The translations under genes and the position numbers were made by a program. Shown here one piece after another: positions 2,519-47,101 of a stretch of DNA of 64,000 nucleotides (position 1 is the stretch's first letter; every line of letters starts with the position of its first letter). This DNA is from Candidatus Woesearchaeota archaeon (GTDB taxonomy: Archaea; Nanobdellota; Nanobdellia; Woesearchaeales; UBA583): positions 544,001 through 608,000 of the forward strand of contig OZ242164.1 in the NCBI GenBank assembly GCA_965205335.1. The letters are read 5' to 3'. The notes below the pieces were generated by a model. The model was given only the letters and a program-made list of their open reading frames with translations, was not told the origin of the DNA and made no database searches.

Positions 2519-3385
2519 CTACTCCAACTTCAAAAGGAATTCATTTAACTCTTCAATTTCTGTTTTCTTTAGAGAATACGAATTAAGCATCATTATTCCA
2601 ATTCCATTAAACTTCTTTATTCTTGAATCTATGTACTTTAGAAACTCAAATACGATATAGAATGAATTCATCTTGAATAATGTGTTCATATCTATCAATA
2701 TTATTGGATTTGATGACTGTTCTAAGAAATTGTCAATGTATGAGACTAAATCATTAATATGCAGAGGATCTACCAAATCGGAGTTTTCATCCAAAACTTC
2801 TTTTAAATAACCTGAATTAATTTTCTCATCCAACTGATTAACCCAAGCAATTGGAGTTTTTTGAATATTAAACTTTGTTCTGATTTCTTTGGGATTATTC
2901 TCTGATATGAAAAATCCTTCAAATCCAATTTTAGTTGCCTTTGCAAATTGTTCAATTAGAAATTTTCTATCTTTCTTTATAAAAAGGTATGAATTTGAAT
3001 TATCTATATTTATATCAAGTTCCCCACCTAATGTTCCTTCCTGAACTGGAACAAATTTCATTTTAACGAATTTTCCTTTATAATATTTTAATATTAAATG
3101 TTCTAAGAGCAATCCACATGCTAAAAATGACATTGAGATAAATACTAGAGAATATACCAATCCTTCTGTTACTACAGGGTTAATAAATATAACTGAATAT
3201 GTTACATAAAAAAATCTTATAAGTTCTGATAATGCAAGAAAAATTGCAGATACACCAATATAAAACCAAGGTCTCCTATGTTTTTGATAGTATACTTTAA
3301 AGATTATTTTAAGAACTATGTATATTGCAAGTACTGACATAAACACAGTAAGTAAAGATATTATTGAAATAGGAGGTTCCATCAA
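2519..3385 (-). CDS. membrane protein with C-terminal DUF835-like domain
   Basis: Three N-terminal TM segments, then a KaiC-like inactive domain (GFFISENNP, PIAWV, NSF..VFEFL..I). Confidence 0.65.
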   Translation of the reverse strand: MMEPPISIISLLTVFMSVLAIYIVLKIIFKVYYQKHRRPWFYIGVSAIFLALSELIRFFYVTYSVIFINPVVTEGLVYSLVFISMSFLACGLLLEHLILKYYKGKFVKMKFVPVQEGTLGGELDINIDNSNSYLFIKKDRKFLIEQFAKATKIGFEGFFISENNPKEIRTKFNIQKTPIAWVNQLDEKINSGYLKEVLDENSDLVDPLHINDLVSYIDNFLEQSSNPIILIDMNTLFKMNSFYIVFEFLKYIDSRIKKFNGIGIMMLNSYSLKKTEIEELNEFLLKLE

Positions 3386-3663
3386 TAATCTCCTAGTTAT
3401 ATAATTTATAAATATTATTTGTTATTTGAAAATGAGGTTTTAATAGTTGGGAATTTTTAATGCAAAATTGCAAAGGAATTTAAAGTGAATCCCTACAAAC
3501 TTGAGATTCCATTCAAAAGAAGAGTTGATGAAAAGTGCAATTAAGAGCAACTATTATTTAGCAAATTAAAGAAAATAACAAATTCTTAACAAAACCAAAA
3601 TATAAAAAACTTCATAAAGACCGCTCTCTTATCCCAAATATAAAATCCCTACTTGAAAACACA

Positions 3664-4359
3664 ATGAAATTAGCAATACTATACTCAGGAGGAAAAGACT
3701 CAAACTTTGCCTTATTTGAAGCCCTGAAAAACAACAATAACAAAATTGTCTGTCTAATATATATGAAATCAGAAAATCCAAACTCTTATATGTTTCAAAA
3801 CGTTGGCTGGGAATTAGTTCAGATGCAATCTCAAGCATTGGGAATTCCCCTTCTAACCCATAAAACAAAAGGAATCAAAGAAAAAGAATTAGATGATTTG
3901 AAAACTGCAATAAAAAAAGCATGTGATGAATTTGGAGCACAGGGAATAGTTAGCGGCGCAATAAACTCATGCTATCAAGCATCAAGAATTCAGAGAATCT
4001 GTAACGATTTGAATTTATGTTCATTTAATCCATTATGGCAGATTAACGAAGATGATTTCATATCCAAGATCCTTGAAAACAATTTTGATGTCAGAATATT
4101 TGGTGTTTTCTCATATCCTCTTGATTGGAATTTCATAGGGAAAAAATTAGACAAAGAATTAATTTCAAGATTGAAAACCATAAGAAAAAATTACAAAATA
4201 TCCATTGCAGGCGAAGGAGGCGAGTTTGAATCATTTGTATTAGATTCTCCATTATTTAAGAAAAAAATAAAAATCGATTCCTTTGATGTAAAAAAAGATT
4301 CTCCTAACTGTGCAACTATTTCAAATATCTCCGCAAGATTAATCAGAAAAGAAAAATGA
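3664..4359 (+). CDS. dph6: diphthine--ammonia ligase (Dph6) / PP-loop ATP pyrophosphatase
   Basis: SGGKDS, SYMFQ, GAINSCYQ, PLW and GEGGEFESFVLDSPLF motifs. Confidence 0.85.
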   Translation: MKLAILYSGGKDSNFALFEALKNNNNKIVCLIYMKSENPNSYMFQNVGWELVQMQSQALGIPLLTHKTKGIKEKELDDLKTAIKKACDEFGAQGIVSGAINSCYQASRIQRICNDLNLCSFNPLWQINEDDFISKILENNFDVRIFGVFSYPLDWNFIGKKLDKELISRLKTIRKNYKISIAGEGGEFESFVLDSPLFKKKIKIDSFDVKKDSPNCATISNISARLIRKEK

Positions 4360-42747: not shown

Positions 42748-45072
42748 ATGAATACAAAAACAAAAGCCGCCCAAAAAGTTGTCCAGAAAAAGTCCCAAGC
42801 AAAACGTACAAAAAAAGCAGAAACAGTTGTTACAAAAGAAGATGCAAAACTCTTAGATGATACTCTAAATATGGTTAAATCACTAAACCAAAAAATTAGT
42901 ACTGTCAGTAAAGCAAAAACAAAACTCCAAAAGGATGTATCAGAACTAAGCAGAAGAATTGACTCAAAGGATAAAAACCAAACAGATGATTCAAAGTTAA
43001 AAGACGAAATAATAGAAGAATTTAAACCAATCTTTAATAAACTAAATCCTCAGACATTAAAAACCCAGTTAAATAAAGAAATTAATTCATCCCTTAAACA
43101 GGAAATTGAAAAAGCAAAATCCCAAGTAAAATCAGATACGAAAAAAGGAGCAGAAGAAATCTCAAAGAAAGTAGCACATTTAGAGAAGGATTTAATGCAG
43201 TCAATAAAATCAAATGAAAAACTAAAAAATGAACTAAACAGATTAAGCAACTCAAAATTAGGTGAAGATATTTTTATAGGAGTTGAAAAGAAAATCCGTG
43301 AACATGTTGAAATCTCCCTAAGAAAAATTTCAAAGGAAATTTCAGAGTTAAGAGTTAATCCACAAGGACATCAGGACAAATCCTTAAACAATAAGATAAG
43401 TAACATTGAAAAGTCTTTAAACAAACTTGAAAAGGAATTGAAAAAAACAGAGGATAAAACATCTAAAAGCATTCAAAAAGAAGTAGAAAACATCAAAAAG
43501 AAGATTCTAAGCGATTTGAAATCAAAAGATTTAAACCATAAAAGAGAACTTGAAGTATTTAAGATTGAAGTATCAAAGCATATCAGGGCATTACTTGATG
43601 GATTACATGCAGAATACAACCTACTAAAAGAGAAGGCTCAGGAGTCCCAGATGGAAGAAGAGAAATTCTTAGAGGAAGTAGCGCAGGGAAATTTGGACAG
43701 ATATGAATTATTTTCACAAAGGGTTGATAAGGCAATAAAATCAAACAAAGAAACCGAAGAGAAACTTGTGGAATTAACTTATAACAATAAAGTTGAACTT
43801 GAAAACATATTTGCGCAGCAAATCAAAGAGGACTTAGCACAGAAAACAATTTCCAATAATGAGTTCTTATTAAATCTAAAAAAATTAGCAAAAGAGAAAC
43901 AGGAGGAATTGTCAGAGAATATTGATAACAAATTAGTTAATTCAGTTGCCCAATTTGAAGGAAAGTTTCATGAGTACATGCAGGATTTTGACAAGGCCTT
44001 AAAGGAGAAAGAAAAAGAGTTTTTAGAAAAGTTAAAAGTAGTTGAGAATGAACGTTATGAAGTTATCTCTCAAATGGAAGAATTTAAAGAAGAAATATCA
44101 AAATTAACAAAAGAATATATGGCAAACCTTCATGATGAACTTGAGAGAATTAAGAAAAAAGAAGTTAAATTAGGTAATGAGAAAAACCAGTTTCTTGTAC
44201 ATATCAATGAATCATCAAAGGCAAGAAAATTAGAAATTGAAGATCTTGCAAATCAAATGAAAGATAGAGTTAAGGGAGTTTTAGAGGAAGAGAGAGACGC
44301 ATTTGACAGACATGAAGAAACATTTAGAGGAGTGTTTTATGAAAAAGTCCAGAATCTGCATGATTTCTCAAAGAAAAAACTAGAAAATATTGAAAGAAAG
44401 TTTGTTGACAAGAATCTAAAATATGTTAGTGATAAAATTAATTCAATGCTTGAACCTCTAAGATTACTTGAAGAAAGTGTCAATGCAAAGGAAGGTGAAA
44501 TTTCAAAATTAGGTCAGGAAATCAACAGCAAACAGGAAGTCTTCTTAGAAGATTTTCATTCACATCAAAAGAATTTAAATCAGGATTTTACAAAACTTGA
44601 GAAAAAGTTAAATGAAAAACTTGAAGATTCAGACAAGCAAATTATAAAATCAAGAAGTGTTGTCAAAGCTATTCTTGAAGAAGTTGAATTCTCAATGACA
44701 AAAATGGATAATTTAATCAATTCAAAGATAGAGGAAATTAATGCAGGCTTAAACAGATTAAAATCCATAGAAAGTAGACTCGTGGGAATTTCACAAATAG
44801 ATTATAAGATTAATCAGATAGAATCAAATATGAACAATATGCATGGTAAAATCAATGAAATTGAAAATCTAAATCATACACATGGGTTTGAATCACTTAA
44901 TTTATTAGTTTCAACAATTGGAGAATACGAGCAAAATTTAATTGCCTTAGTAAAATCACTTAAATCAGAAGGAGTTTCAGAAGAGCACATTAAAACCATT
45001 CTAAGACAGAAAGGTCACCCTATGCTATATGTCTCAATGGTCTTGGAAAATCTGAACTTCTTAGAGCACTAA
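42748..45072 (+). CDS. long coiled-coil protein of unknown function
   Basis: 774 aa, K/E/L-rich heptads, no NTPase motif; short C-terminal helical domain (LKSEGVSEEHIKTILRQKGHP). Confidence 0.7.
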   Translation: MNTKTKAAQKVVQKKSQAKRTKKAETVVTKEDAKLLDDTLNMVKSLNQKISTVSKAKTKLQKDVSELSRRIDSKDKNQTDDSKLKDEIIEEFKPIFNKLNPQTLKTQLNKEINSSLKQEIEKAKSQVKSDTKKGAEEISKKVAHLEKDLMQSIKSNEKLKNELNRLSNSKLGEDIFIGVEKKIREHVEISLRKISKEISELRVNPQGHQDKSLNNKISNIEKSLNKLEKELKKTEDKTSKSIQKEVENIKKKILSDLKSKDLNHKRELEVFKIEVSKHIRALLDGLHAEYNLLKEKAQESQMEEEKFLEEVAQGNLDRYELFSQRVDKAIKSNKETEEKLVELTYNNKVELENIFAQQIKEDLAQKTISNNEFLLNLKKLAKEKQEELSENIDNKLVNSVAQFEGKFHEYMQDFDKALKEKEKEFLEKLKVVENERYEVISQMEEFKEEISKLTKEYMANLHDELERIKKKEVKLGNEKNQFLVHINESSKARKLEIEDLANQMKDRVKGVLEEERDAFDRHEETFRGVFYEKVQNLHDFSKKKLENIERKFVDKNLKYVSDKINSMLEPLRLLEESVNAKEGEISKLGQEINSKQEVFLEDFHSHQKNLNQDFTKLEKKLNEKLEDSDKQIIKSRSVVKAILEEVEFSMTKMDNLINSKIEEINAGLNRLKSIESRLVGISQIDYKINQIESNMNNMHGKINEIENLNHTHGFESLNLLVSTIGEYEQNLIALVKSLKSEGVSEEHIKTILRQKGHPMLYVSMVLENLNFLEH

Positions 45073-45086
45073 ATTTTTTAATGCTA

Positions 45087-46371
45087 TCAATTAATACTTT
45101 CTATTTCAACAGGCTTTGTACGATAAGTAACTAAAAACTCTGACTTATCGTACAACAGGTTAGCAGTAATTCCCAAGTTTTCCATTTCCATAATAAGAAC
45201 GCAAATATTATGGCATACAATTTTACATAACACTTCGTTTACCTGTGCTGTCCTGTTTTTAGATTTAACATTATCCCCAAACTTCTTTTTCACCATACTA
45301 AATGTAGTTTCAACATTACTTCGTTTATGATAATGTTCCATAAACTCATCCTGATTATAAAGGAAATAATGTAATGCTTTCTTCCAGATTATACCTCGTT
45401 TATGTTTGGATTTTTCATTTACATTATTTTTGAAAGGAATATAAGGAACTGCTCCTACTTCATTGATTGCTTCTAAGTTTTCCTTACTGATATACGCCTT
45501 ATCTCCTGAAAACTCCTCTATTGTGAAGACTTCATTAGTCTTATCCAGTAACTCTTTTAACTGTGGGCTGTCGTGGTCAAATTCAGACGTTATTTTAACT
45601 GCTGGAATGATGTTAGTATGAACTCCTGAAACTATGTGACATTTAACCCATTTCTTATATCTGTCCTGTGTGGAATGCTTATACTTATTCCAGTTCTGCA
45701 CTATTGACGTACCAAATCCCGAACTGTCTATTGCAAAATTGGTTTCAACTTCTTTCAATGGCTGTGATGTAATCTTAATCAGGTTGTGCAGAATCTCTGA
45801 AACCTCTTTTTTATTAAAGTAAACTTTAAGTGTTGTAAATGGAACTTCCTTAGTTATGTACTCAAAATCCTTGCTTAACTGCATATCACAGGTAAATCTA
45901 CGCCCAGAAACCCCTGAATACACTTTAAATATCATTGAGTTAAAATATCGTGTATAGGTGTTTTAGGTCGCCCAAACTTATAACCTTCCTCCTGTGAGTT
46001 CTTAACTAAATCGCTCAACAATTTCATAAACTTGTCCTTCTCTGTTTTCTGTGCCTCATCATAAGCACTCCAATTCTGTGTGTATATCTTCTTAGTTACT
46101 TCCTGTTTTAAAGTTCCGTCGGTATAAATTGTCTGAGTTACAGTATATTCTACTGCAAAGATATGCTTACATTTAGAGTGACGCTTCTTATAGTCCATAC
46201 AACTGCATTTAGCACCAAAACCATTACTCTTAACCACATAGCACATTTTAGTATTCGTTTGGCTCGTACTATCTACGTTGTATCATTCTCCTTCTTAATC
46301 TTGAAGTCCTTTGCAATTTCAAGACCTCTTTCTTGTCTTAAGTTTTGTTGTGGTTGTTTGTTTTGTACCAT
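45087..46371 (-). pseudogene. disrupted SWIM-zinc-finger DDE transposase
   Basis: ATG at 46371; in-frame TAG and frameshift near 46265-46275; second frameshift near 45940; CSCMD..KCKH, AIDSSGF, GDKAY and HKRSNVETTFSM motifs. Confidence 0.85.
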
Positions 46372-46775
46372 AATAAGTAATAATTATTACTCTTAAAATA
46401 TTTATTAATACCTATACCTAATAATCCTGAAAAAATATCCTAAATTATTAAAGAGAATATAAAAATTGCTAAAAAGTCAAGAATAGAGGAATTAAAAGCA
46501 ATGTCCAAAATTAATGAAACTCCTATAATTTCAATTTTTGGTTCAATACAAAAAAACTAAGGACAAAAACATTTAAATATCTCTACCTTTTTATTGTATA
46601 AGAGATTTCGCTTAATTTCACTCGTGGTTGTTTGTTTTTAGGCGAAATCTCTCTTATTTTTAAATAATATATATAAATATTAAAGTTTAGTAAATTTTAT
46701 GACAAACCAAGTAATTTAAGACTTTTCGTACAGATTCCTTACTTTTCGTACAAAACACACTTTTCGTACAAAGCC
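45112..46775 (-). mobile_element. IS element (1664 bp, IS4/IS5-like DDE with SWIM finger), 9-bp TSD
   Basis: TIR GGCTTTGTACGA/TCGTACAAAGCC; ATTTCAACA at 45103-45111 and 46776-46784. Confidence 0.88.
46601..46661 (+). ncRNA. candidate IS-encoded hairpin antisense sRNA
   Basis: 15-bp stem with one G-U pair; 22-nt loop complementary to transposase nt +8..+22; TTTAAATA upstream and a T-run downstream. Confidence 0.5.
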
Positions 46776-46820
46776 ATTTCAACAATAATCTTTATAAAAG
46801 AATTCCAATTATTTTCAAGT

Positions 46821-47012
46821 ATGATAATCCCAATAAGATGTTTTTCATGCGGTAAACCAGTAGGTCATTTATGGGAAGAATTTAAAACCCAAACTGAAAA
46901 AGGGAAACCAGTAAAAGAAGTTCTTGACTCTTTAGAATTAAAAAGATTCTGTTGCAGAACAGTTGTTATGTCCCATGTTGATTCAATAGATATTGTAGGA
47001 AAATACAAATAA
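46821..47012 (+). CDS. rpoN: RNA polymerase subunit N (Rpo10)
   Basis: MIIPIRCFSCGK...RFCCR. Confidence 0.96.
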   Translation: MIIPIRCFSCGKPVGHLWEEFKTQTEKGKPVKEVLDSLELKRFCCRTVVMSHVDSIDIVGKYK

Positions 47013-47101
47013 TTCTCTATTTCTGCTTAATCCATACCCTACCTCTTAGTTTTTTATTATATCTTACAAAGTTTTATATTATTGTAATTTAAAATATTTT
47101 T

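Follow-up and report, generated by a model that had tools for sequence, protein, structure and literature searches.

The insertion sequence and its transposase gene

The stretch of DNA analysed, referred to as the window, comprises 64,000 nucleotides of a Candidatus Woesearchaeota archaeon (contig OZ242164.1, 544,001-608,000) with a genome of 1,199,749 bases. It contains an insertion sequence (IS) of 1664 bp (45112-46775), which is orientated on the minus strand and ends 46 nt before the start of rpoN. The extent of the element was read directly from its ends and from the flanking 9-bp target-site duplication ATTTCAACA, whose left copy (45103-45111) is identical to the right copy (46776-46784). 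At the transposase 3' end, the 17-nt terminal inverted repeat GGCTTTGTACGATAAGT (45112-45128, plus strand) is accompanied by an inward copy of the repeat unit (45143-45155). The upstream end (46721-46775, minus strand) consists of the terminal inverted repeat (46759-46775) and further direct copies of ACTTTTCGTACA at 46721-46732 and 46741-46752, and these units are presumed to be binding sites of the transposase. The element ends of this clade have the form GGCTTTGYACGADAAGT, and the doubled unit reads TGTACGADAAGT. The genome contains a single full copy of the IS; elsewhere it carries one solo end and one short derivative that has the same ends and a 9-bp duplication of its own. Duplications of 9 bp also flank related elements, namely AGATAAAGC at L012 and TATGTTTTG at L009.

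The element was assigned to the IS5 family on the basis of a DDE transposase that matches the family model and of inverted ends with a direct target duplication. Pfam identified DDE_Tnp_1 (PF01609, 1.9e-24) and SWIM (4.4e-4) domains in the transposase. The NCBIfam IS5 model NF033579, which has a cut-off of 140 bits, gave 131.6 bits with the truncated DDE frame of the window and 144.3 bits with the intact homologue from a genome of the same genus (G301, see below). A target duplication of 9 bp is typical of the IS903 group. The element shares with the IS5 family the DDE transposase, the terminal inverted repeats and the 9-bp duplication; it differs in the N-terminal SWIM zinc finger of its transposase and in a variable upstream module that holds passenger genes or, in this clade, a hairpin.

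The transposase gene (45090-46371, minus strand) is distributed over three frames that encode the N-terminus (46371-46276), the SWIM finger (46246-45935) and the DDE part (45935-45090), the last of which runs through the IS end into the flanking DNA. Two 1-nt frameshifts separate the frames; on the assumption of a 1-nt deletion, each frame can be fitted to the intact homologues. Independent contigs from runs X1 and X2 agree with the window and show no indel in the transposase gene; both runs represent one sample, possibly the window's own source. A search for sequencing runs that contain 45000-47100 gave three DNA runs, all from one sample, and no RNA run. The window copy does not have the intact reading frame of an IS5 element; it is a non-autonomous member whose transposase is a pseudogene, and therefore the circuit proposed below regulates nothing here at present.

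The transposase ATG lies at 46371 on the minus strand. In a putative promoter region (46376-46408, minus strand), TTAATAAATA (46399-46408) precedes AGTAATAATTATTACT (46376-46391), a perfect palindrome of 16 nt that stops 4 nt short of the ATG. By position, this arrangement is comparable to GGTTTATAAATA and the palindromes found in the relatives L054 and L070. The role of the region as a promoter is presumed. The transposase mRNA would be leaderless or would have a very short leader; for the mRNA of G301, a leader of about 20 nt is probable.

A hairpin whose loop repeats the start of the transposase gene

Between the upstream end of the IS and the transposase gene lies a hairpin (46601-46652, plus strand) with a 15-bp stem and a 22-nt loop. 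It is located 137 nt inside the IS end and 230 nt from the transposase ATG, and it points toward rpoN. The stem pairs 46601-46615 with 46638-46652 and includes a single G-U pair (U46612-G46641); in the minus strand these two positions form an A-C mismatch, which favours the plus strand. Accordingly, the predicted folding energy is -23.0 kcal/mol on the plus strand (z -6.0; none of 200 shuffled sequences folded as well) and -17.0 kcal/mol on the minus strand.

The 3' side of the loop, past an 8-nt spacer, is formed by the segment GUGGUUGUUUGUUUU (46624-46638, plus strand). This 15-mer, GTGGTTGTTTGTTTT, is identical to 46350-46364, nucleotides +8 to +22 of the transposase coding sequence (CDS), from which it is separated by 274 nt. 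As RNA, the corresponding segment of the transposase message (AAAACAAACAACCAC, minus strand, codons 3-8) is the exact complement of the loop segment, and in the predicted fold of the mRNA 5' end it is unpaired. A preliminary description of this DNA had reported the stem with its plus-strand-only G-U pair, the exact repetition of the CDS start in the loop, a distance of about 230 bp to the ATG, and a TATA box and a T-run on either side of the hairpin; all of these were found in the sequence.

The match is more than chance would give. On both strands of its 1,199,749 bases, GTGGTTGTTTGTTTT occurs exactly twice, both times within this IS, and one further site appears if one mismatch is allowed. 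The longest match between CDS nucleotides 1-60 and the 406-nt upstream region is the 15-mer; when the upstream region was shuffled, the mean was 7.4 and the maximum 13, with 0 of 2000 shuffles reaching 15, and shuffling of the CDS gave 1 in 2000. The duplex of the loop with its cognate mRNA has a calculated energy of -21.0 kcal/mol, which was equalled by none of 2000 shuffled loops. Duplex energies given here refer to the loop only, folding of the whole RNAs having yielded extended structures with large internal loops. A helix search that tolerated G-U pairs over 5 kb cannot discriminate, its background of 10-17 nt being as high as the signal. Pairing of the 5' arm of the hairpin with mRNA nucleotides +21 to +70 was also considered and was dropped as chance-level, since 302 of 2000 shuffles in G301 and 1015 of 2000 in the window were as good.

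Similarity extends beyond the 15-mer: 46337-46364 and 46611-46638 agree at 23 of 28 nucleotides. The loop segment looks like a diverged duplicate of the CDS 5' end in which a short core has been kept perfectly matched.

The counterpart in a genome of the same genus

The genome G301 encodes an intact transposase of 411 aa that is 71% identical to the window protein over the DDE part. Its gene is on contig C3, with an archaeal phage-type integrase gene upstream. Another contig, C2, has at 155086 an IS end of the window's upstream type with four ACTTTTCGTACA-type units, and a hairpin lies beside it in the position known from the window. A 17-mer located 108-124 nt inside the C2 end is identical to nucleotides +4 to +20 of the G301 transposase CDS; in the 1.1-Mb genome these are the only two sites with up to two mismatches, the reversed pattern used as a control gave none, and 0 of 2000 shuffles reached 17. 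The 17-mer lies in the loop of an 11-bp hairpin, for which folding gave -20.2 kcal/mol with the antisense strand, relative to the transposase, and -11 kcal/mol with the sense strand.

Aligned by position, the hairpin regions of the window and G301 show a common architecture of 5' arm, 8-nt spacer (UUUCACUC or UUUUCCCA), antisense segment and 3' arm. Stem sequences differ between the window and G301, and pairing is kept in both. This comparison of the stems was made by hand, as the MAFFT alignment was out of register and the pair counts of RNAalifold derived from it are not meaningful. The two stems contain three wobble pairs, one in the window and two in G301, and each of these can form only in the antisense strand. 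Within the 16-nt core, four positions differ between the lineages; at three of them the loop and the CDS carry the same change. The match of each loop with its own target is uninterrupted (15/15 in the window, 17/17 in G301), in contrast to 7 and 9 nt for the non-cognate combinations. The duplex energies follow the same pattern, with -21.0 and -27.4 kcal/mol for the cognate pairs as opposed to -13.9 kcal/mol (window loop with G301 mRNA) and -10.5 kcal/mol for the non-cognate pairs. The seed co-varies with its target across the lineages. The comparison is a single one, between two lineages, and concerns a low-complexity, A/C-rich segment.

A duplication by itself might account for such a match. 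The loop segment would then have remained from a duplication that copied part of the transposase 5' end, and the hairpin would have an unrelated role, for example as the 3' end or terminator of the divergent transcript that encodes a small zinc-ribbon protein in relatives. The similarity over 23 of 28 nucleotides is what a duplicate would show, both known hairpin carriers are decayed or rearranged, and a T5 run follows the stem. In addition, relatives of the element carry a divergent small zinc-ribbon gene in this region upstream of the transposase, and a weak trace of one may precede the hairpin in the window: at 46504-46560 (plus strand), tblastn with the zinc-ribbon proteins of five relatives revealed a possible decayed remnant, in short matches only (e.g. 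NETPIIS versus KETPIIC, E 0.14-0.4 in a 419-nt database). A neutral copy, however, should diverge at the rate of the lineages (4/16), whereas 15/15 and 17/17 are observed, with sharp drop-offs on both sides, and the perfect core lies within the single-stranded loop of both elements. A terminator role would also leave the agreement between loop and cognate CDS unexplained. We regard a relic of this kind as unlikely.

Distribution among related elements

The hairpin was followed through further relatives. Neither a hairpin nor a CDS match occurs in any of eight more distant SWIM-DDE relatives (47-57% identity), of which 3.3-7.7 kb of upstream DNA were examined, and the feature therefore belongs to a narrow clade and not to the family. 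The expectation raised in the preliminary description, that related elements keep the hairpin with a loop that tracks their own transposase start, holds for G301, the one related element in which the comparison can be made. Sense-strand hairpins of about -16 kcal/mol lie 52 nt inward from the ends of L011 and L012 and proved to be unrelated to the transposase starts of these elements.

The closest relative of the window IS is L070, with 81% protein identity, the one close relative among eight metagenome loci. DNA homology between the two stops at 46346, CDS nucleotide +26, and the N-terminus of the L070 protein is shorter and does not contain the target, from which it follows that the target travels with the hairpin-bearing upstream module. 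As the L070 contig ends 934 nt upstream of the ATG, it is uninformative with regard to the hairpin itself. In other relatives, the same upstream place is occupied by genes for small zinc-ribbon or ribbon-helix-helix proteins. In G301 the hairpin stands beside a solo IS end on C2, and at the corresponding place the transposase on C3 has a zinc-ribbon gene. Among the elements examined, none combines the hairpin with a working transposase in one intact element.

A search of genome contigs with the transposase protein gave no further relatives. With the repeat pattern, 17 stretches were obtained, 15 of which were bacterial chance matches; L093 and L102 were the only ones with the ends of the element, and they resemble the two G301 places, without a base-by-base check. 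In viral contigs, the alignment search yielded no relatives and the pattern search two matches, both due to chance. At the class level, the best match among 401 genomes was 55% and no further close relatives were found. The host genome also carries four copies of another IS, about 1032 bp long; that element is compact and lacks a non-coding module of this kind.

Putative transcription signals and possible roles of the hairpin

A putative TATA box, TTTAAATA (46572-46579, plus strand), agrees with TTTAWATA at 8/8 positions and ends 21 nt ahead of the first base of the stem. In G301, TATAAATA ends 22 nt ahead of the first stem base. Matches to TTTAWATA of at least 7/8 occupy 1.4% of the positions in the non-coding DNA of the window IS and 0.7% in the G301 region, which speaks for a promoter at these places. 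Against it, TATA-like words are frequent in this AT-rich DNA. Downstream of the stem, a T5 run (46657-46661, plus strand) was read directly and is likely to be the archaeal termination signal of the hairpin RNA. An Rfam scan of 44900-47100 with E values up to 1 gave only two weak and unrelated matches, SNORD61 (E 0.11) and MIR159 (E 0.88).

In both elements, the strand asymmetry of the stem and a TATA box at the right distance favour an RNA that runs on the plus strand, antisense to the transposase. To this extent the reading advanced in the preliminary description gains from the second element, and it is narrowed by the restriction of the feature to one small clade. We consider it moderately probable, as judged from the sequences, that the hairpin specifies an antisense RNA which is transcribed outward and whose gene is separate from its target. 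Three other roles of the hairpin have to be weighed against this one.

In an arrangement of the IS10 type, with face-to-face pIN and pOUT promoters, the transposase mRNA would originate from a minus-strand TATA box at 46677-46670, its 5' end would overlap the hairpin, and the match with the CDS start would be secondary. A perfect minus-strand TTTATATA is present at this position and would put the start at about 46647, within the 3' arm. However, TATA words are expected by chance in the (TA)-rich stretch 46659-46680. The sense strand of G301 contains no TATA-like word from the terminal repeats to the hairpin (by reading; the scan covered the antisense strand), and the transposase promoter of the relatives is situated 45-48 nt before the ATG, where the window has the homologous TTAATAAATA. 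These observations make an overlapping antisense RNA improbable.

The location of the hairpin between the IS end and the transposase gene, directed at rpoN and followed by plus-strand T runs, could also indicate a barrier to read-through that stops or destabilizes transcripts entering the IS or leaving it toward rpoN, the identity of the loop being incidental. Against such a function, the hairpin is weaker on the sense strand and is not followed by a T run there, and a scan of 46200-46900 found no bacterial-type terminators (the hairpin loop has 22 nt). Matched loops in two lineages would be left unexplained, and we hold this function to be very improbable.

Finally, the inverted repeat might act as DNA, as a cruciform or as the binding site of the transposase or a host factor, for which its position near the IS end among repeated units resembling binding sites would be suitable. 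But the stems of the two elements are unrelated in sequence, the three wobble pairs preserve pairing in the RNA of one strand only, and the conserved part is the loop and not the arms. Of the roles considered, a DNA-level site is the one to which we assign hardly any likelihood.

A model of antisense control

According to the antisense model, which we prefer, the hairpin gene would use a TATA box of its own to produce a small plus-strand RNA of about 55-60 nt, with transcription running outward to the nearer IS end. In the large loop of this RNA, 15 nt would be exposed for perfect pairing with codons 3-8 of the transposase mRNA of the same element. The diffusible RNA would use its loop to bind the transposase message at the unstructured 5' end and would either prevent ribosomes from reaching the start or target the message for degradation, by which transposition would be held down for every copy in the cell. 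Transcription of the hairpin, pairing in the cell, repression of the transposase and the leaderless state of its message are what we infer from the arrangement of the sequences.

A more far-reaching and rather doubtful proposal is that the hairpin gene is a portable immunity module that arose by duplication of the target, that is, a trans-acting anti-transposase RNA which resides in the exchangeable upstream module and may outlive the transposase. The perfect match between the orphan hairpin of G301 and the start of the transposase on the other contig would make sense if the orphan were retained by the host to repress the active copy. Mu killer is a eukaryotic locus that silences a transposon; a portable hairpin module, if this proposal is correct, would be a prokaryotic analogue.

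Comparison with known antisense systems

Antisense control of transposases is classic, and the textbook cases known to us (IS10, IS30 and IS200) involve RNAs that overlap their targets. In IS10/Tn10, RNA-OUT is an outward stem-loop RNA, with a family of its own in Rfam, that is transcribed from an internal promoter opposite the 5' end of RNA-IN, which it overlaps, and its loop pairs with the extreme 5' end of RNA-IN. Like IS10, the element described here encodes a stable stem-loop, expected to act in trans on all copies, with complementarity in its loop to the 5' end of the transposase mRNA. It differs in that the RNA gene is 230-280 nt away from its target, with a shared core of only 15 nt in the window and 17 nt in G301, in its archaeal host with TATA-type promoters and in the lack of an Rfam match. 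We know of no Hfq-dependent system in this archaeal host. With the overlapping gene layout of IS10, IS30 and IS200, complementarity comes free. An antisense determinant encoded at a distance must have its match maintained, and maintenance is seen in two lineages.

Small-RNA genes outside a transposase CDS are described for ISPpu9 of Pseudomonas putida (IS110 family). Asr9, whose gene overlaps the tnp 5' UTR, is reported to be an activator of expression, and the target of Ssr9 is not the mRNA but Asr9, with which it pairs in trans from a non-overlapping gene (PMC8450116). Orphan copies of the small-RNA gene without a transposase are also described (PMC8450116), as in G301. That system is bacterial, and the single hairpin proposed here would aim directly at the first codons of the CDS. 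The small antisense RNA art200 of IS200 is reported to base-pair with the transposase message and to suppress it (PMC4513863). It is likewise an IS-encoded antisense RNA against a transposase message, but it is described as cis-encoded opposite the tnpA 5' UTR of a bacterial element with a Y1 transposase (PMC4513863). Among archaea, the RNA-257 paralogues of Sulfolobus solfataricus are described as transposon-derived and antisense to the 3' UTR of a host phosphate-transporter mRNA (PMC3674436). They share with the hairpin RNA the archaeal, transposon-derived origin and an mRNA target encoded elsewhere; in that description the target is the 3' UTR of a host mRNA, as opposed to the start of the element's own transposase (PMC3674436).

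If the antisense circuit is confirmed, this would be the first IS known to us, and in the literature searched, that controls the start of its own transposase by means of a separately encoded hairpin RNA. It would also provide an example of riboregulation in a DPANN-type archaeon, a group for which, to our knowledge, almost no riboregulation has been described. With matched segments of 15-17 nt, the two elements would offer a compact natural RNA-target pair that contains its own compensatory test and could serve to study how archaeal small RNAs act on mRNAs with a short leader or none, and duplication of the target would be a route by which trans-acting small RNAs originate.

Hairpin and its match to the transposase start

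Within the insertion sequence that spans 45112-46775 of the window (1664 bp), 46601-46615 pairs with 46638-46652 in a stem of 15 pairs, one of them G-U (U46612-G46641), and a run of five T residues (46657-46661) follows the stem. The folding energy of the hairpin is -23.0 kcal/mol on the plus strand (z -6.0; none of 200 shuffles as good) and -17.0 kcal/mol on the minus strand. The 15-mer in the loop (46624-46638) is identical to 46350-46364, which are nucleotides +8 to +22 of the coding sequence of the transposase, whose gene starts at 46371 on the minus strand. On both strands of the host genome, an archaeal genome of 1.2 Mb in a single contig with 31% G+C, the 15-mer occurs exactly twice. 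Shuffling of the 406-nt upstream region did not yield a 15-nt match to the coding sequence in 2000 trials (mean 7.4, maximum 13), and shuffling of the coding sequence instead yielded one in 2000. In nine related elements, comparable matches in the 1.1 kb upstream reach no more than 6-9 nt. The stem, the G-U pair, the loop copy, the TATA box and the T run of the preliminary description are all present in the window sequence. Its interpretation of these features as antisense control is supported in part: its core passes, in a related element, the co-variation test that the description put forward.

A related element in the same genus

A search of 20 genomes of the genus revealed, on contig C3 of genome G301, an intact 411-aa transposase that is 71% identical over the DDE part. 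An insertion sequence end of the upstream type lies on contig C2 of the same genome, with four TTTGTACGA(A/G)AAGT units from C2:155086. Located 108-124 nt inside this end, GAAACCACACAACTACA equals nucleotides +4 to +20 of the C3 transposase. Only these two places in the genome carry the 17-mer at up to two mismatches (reversed control, 0), and none of 2000 shuffles reached a 17-nt match. The 17-mer forms part of the loop of a hairpin with 11 bp, two of them G-U or U-G, and a folding energy of -20.2 kcal/mol (z -4.3) on the strand antisense to the transposase versus -11 kcal/mol on the sense strand. According to the preliminary description, a related element should keep the hairpin with a loop that follows its own transposase start, and G301 does so.

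The two hairpin regions align by position (MAFFT) and share a layout of 5' arm, 8-nt spacer (UUUCACUC or UUUUCCCA), antisense segment and 3' arm. The two elements have arms of unrelated sequence, which pair in each; the loops are the best-conserved part. In the MAFFT alignment the 16-nt core, AAAAACAAACAACCAC in the window and GAAACCACACAACTAC in G301, differs at four positions, at three of which the coding sequence has the change of the loop. This count rests on window nucleotides 7-22 aligned to G301 nucleotides 4-19, a low-complexity segment with a one-codon offset and 12 of 16 positions identical. Independently of the alignment, perfect identity between a loop and its own coding sequence spans 15 nt (window) and 17 nt (G301), and between a loop and the coding sequence of the other element only 7 and 9 nt. 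Cognate loop-mRNA duplexes reach -21.0 and -27.4 kcal/mol, values attained by none of 2000 shuffled loops, versus -13.9 and -10.5 kcal/mol for the non-cognate duplexes. The target stretches are predicted to be unpaired in both mRNAs. The co-variation was seen in two lineages, the window and G301.

The similarity between loop region and coding sequence extends to 23 of 28 nt, which suggests that the loop segment originated as a duplicate of the 5' end of the coding sequence. The same similarity would be left by a mere relic, a duplicate that is drifting; however, drift predicts that loop and coding sequence differ within a lineage about as much as between lineages (4 of 16), whereas they are identical over the core. 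Moreover, the identical core is sharply bounded and lies in the single-stranded loop of both elements, which argues against a relic. Gene conversion could also keep the loop equal to the coding sequence, but for so short a tract we infer that it is less likely than selection for pairing. That the hairpin is an antisense RNA directed against the transposase mRNA is, on the sequences compared, a moderately probable reading.

An intact element with the hairpin and a working transposase together was not seen: the transposase gene of the window is dead, and the G301 parts are on different contigs (C2 and C3). The C3 transposase is surrounded by a zinc-ribbon gene and an archaeal phage-type integrase gene, with an Mrr-type nuclease gene downstream. 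The integrase gene (3229-3768 of locus L054, which holds this transposase; PF16795, 1.4e-24) lies upstream of the transposase, about 0.5 kb past the zinc-ribbon gene. Integration of an element may have split the transposase off from its upstream end and the hairpin, now on C2.

Predicted strand and promoters

All three wobble pairs of the two hairpins favour the strand opposite the transposase. The TATA box TTTAAATA (46572-46579) ends 21 nt before the window stem, and TATAAATA ends 22 nt before the G301 stem. Words matching TTTAWATA in at least 7 of 8 positions occupy 1.4% of the region in the window and 0.7% of that in G301; a box at the right spacing in both elements is therefore unlikely to arise by chance. 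Transcription is predicted to start at the stem's first base, which in each element is a purine preceded by T or A, and to proceed outward to the nearer end of the insertion sequence, as from pOUT in IS10. By eye, the predicted hairpin promoter region of G301 is about 70% like the zinc-ribbon promoter on C3 over 36 nt, a weak resemblance in AT-rich DNA. Just before the window's predicted hairpin promoter, 46504-46560 (plus strand) resembles, over short and frame-shifted stretches, the C-terminal half of the relatives' zinc-ribbon proteins (NETPIIS vs KETPIIC, FWFNTKK vs YWNKPKK); the resemblance is weak and may mark a decayed gene remnant.

The presumed TATA box of the transposase, TTAATAAATA (46399-46408, minus strand), has a positional homologue, GGTTTATAAATA, in L054 and in the metagenome contig L070. 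Next comes a 16-nt palindrome, AGTAATAATTATTACT (46376-46391), whose end is 4 nt from the ATG. Because of these two features, the window's transposase message would start at or a few bases from the ATG. The relatives have 20-25 more bases before the ATG, with GGTG there in several. Perfect or near-perfect palindromes between presumed TATA box and ATG occur in the window, in L070 (TACTTATATAAGTA, two copies, at about 860-930) and in L054 (sense strand, about 1030-1050). These may serve as operators, perhaps bound by the zinc-ribbon protein that is encoded divergently. A variant with overlapping transcripts may also be considered, in which a sense RNA comes from the perfect TTTATATA at 46677-46670 (minus strand), inside a (TA)-rich stretch. 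If used, this TATA box would place the start of a sense transcript within the 3' arm of the hairpin.

The insertion sequence and its transposase gene

The element is bounded by GGCTTTGTACGATAAGT (45112-45128) and, inverted, ACTTTTCGTACAAAGCC (46759-46775), and is flanked on both sides by a perfect 9-bp duplication, ATTTCAACA (45103-45111 and 46776-46784). The ACTTTTCGTACA unit has two further direct copies at the upstream end. A 774-aa coiled-coil gene lies on one side and rpoN (46821-47012; RNA_pol_N, 1.1e-25) on the other. An Rfam match at the left junction (45047-45115, minus strand) to the C/D-box snoRNA-like SNORD61, which is weak at 29.2 bits (gathering score 43; E 0.11), is probably due to chance. 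The host genome, G000, contains this one full copy, a solo left end that adjoins a tRNA-like region (G000:C1:386142-386217) and a gene-free derivative of about 88 bp (G000:C1:1182963-1183067, at about 1182972). The derivative keeps the two ends, GGCTTTGTACGAAAAGT and ACTTTTCGTACAAAGCC, is flanked by a 9-bp duplication of its own, CAACTAATC, and resembles a MITE. A second, compact type, about 1032 bp long and coding for a 306-aa DDE transposase, is present in four copies (G000:C1:173574, 820014, 923171 and 927735), three of them mutually 99.7-100% identical and the fourth 89%. The long non-coding module is absent from all four.

The transposase gene is broken into three frames on the minus strand, 46371-46276, 46246-45935 (SWIM; Pfam 4.4e-4) and 45935-45090 (DDE_Tnp_1; 1.9e-24). 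Compared with intact homologues, both breaks match single-base deletions, one after ACAAC near 46276 and the other at 45935-45945 in a T run (ATTTTAAC, minus strand). Independent contigs from two DNA sequencing runs, X1 and X2, span the broken gene without an indel and with the same sequence; they argue only weakly against an assembly error, because both come from one sample, possibly the source of the window itself. As it reads, the gene is dead. NCBIfam assigns the intact G301 homologue to the IS5 family (NF033579, 144.3 bits; cut-off 140).

Relatives and the exchangeable upstream module

A related DDE domain was found in 40 of 301 genomes of the same order, a tally that takes in G000 and the unpublished G132, on which no other result rests; the best relative outside the genus is 57% identical. 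The SWIM N-terminus is present in eight of the 24 loci L007-L030 and absent in 16. In these eight (47-57% identity) a small divergent gene of zinc-ribbon, ribbon-helix-helix-like or AbrB-like type lies directly upstream of the transposase; the types are named from the sequences, and profile scans covered the zinc-ribbon gene and its neighbours in L054 and L070. Nucleotides 1-60 of the coding sequence had no match of at least 13 nt in the 3.3-7.9 kb upstream in the eight loci or in L054, the longest being low-complexity matches of 12 nt in L009, L010 and L012.

Recognisable ends of the relatives begin with GGCTTTG and are accompanied by 9-bp duplications, as in the elements of L012 (5.1 kb; AGATAAAGC) and L009 (2.35 kb; TATGTTTTG). 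In the SWIM-IS5 relatives (L078-L086, for example the 5.1-kb L012 element), passenger genes occupy the stretch from the upstream end to the transposase; they are small zinc-ribbon, ribbon-helix-helix-like, or AbrB-like plus HTH-like genes. The family therefore has a variable module at this place, and these relatives behave as small transposons. In the closest relative, L070 (81% identity), an in-frame TAA and a frameshift likewise interrupt the transposase, and the contig ends 934 nt upstream of the ATG inside a C-5 DNA methylase gene. Its DNA homology to the window's element (77.6% over 1258 aligned nt) stops abruptly at 46346, nucleotide +26 of the coding sequence, and the target codons are missing from its N-terminus. 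The first 25 or so nucleotides of the coding sequence are part of the exchangeable upstream module.

Comparison with known systems and proposed action

The hairpin has no Rfam match. As proposed here, it resembles RNA-OUT of IS10 in a loop that meets the 5' end of the mRNA, an outward promoter and action in trans; unlike RNA-OUT, it lacks the defining overlap with its target. The nearest precedent is ISPpu9, for which PMC8450116 describes non-overlapping small RNAs borne by the element and orphan sRNA copies; there, unlike in the window element, Ssr9 targets another sRNA and Asr9 activates. In the full-text literature searched, mostly outside the subscription journals, no insertion sequence was found in which a hairpin encoded apart from the transposase gene is directed at the start of that transposase. 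In the proposed mechanism, a hairpin RNA of about 55-60 nt would use its loop to nucleate pairing at codons 3-8 of the transposase message. If that message starts near its ATG, a duplex in the first 22 nt would presumably keep the ribosome out or lay the RNA open to decay.
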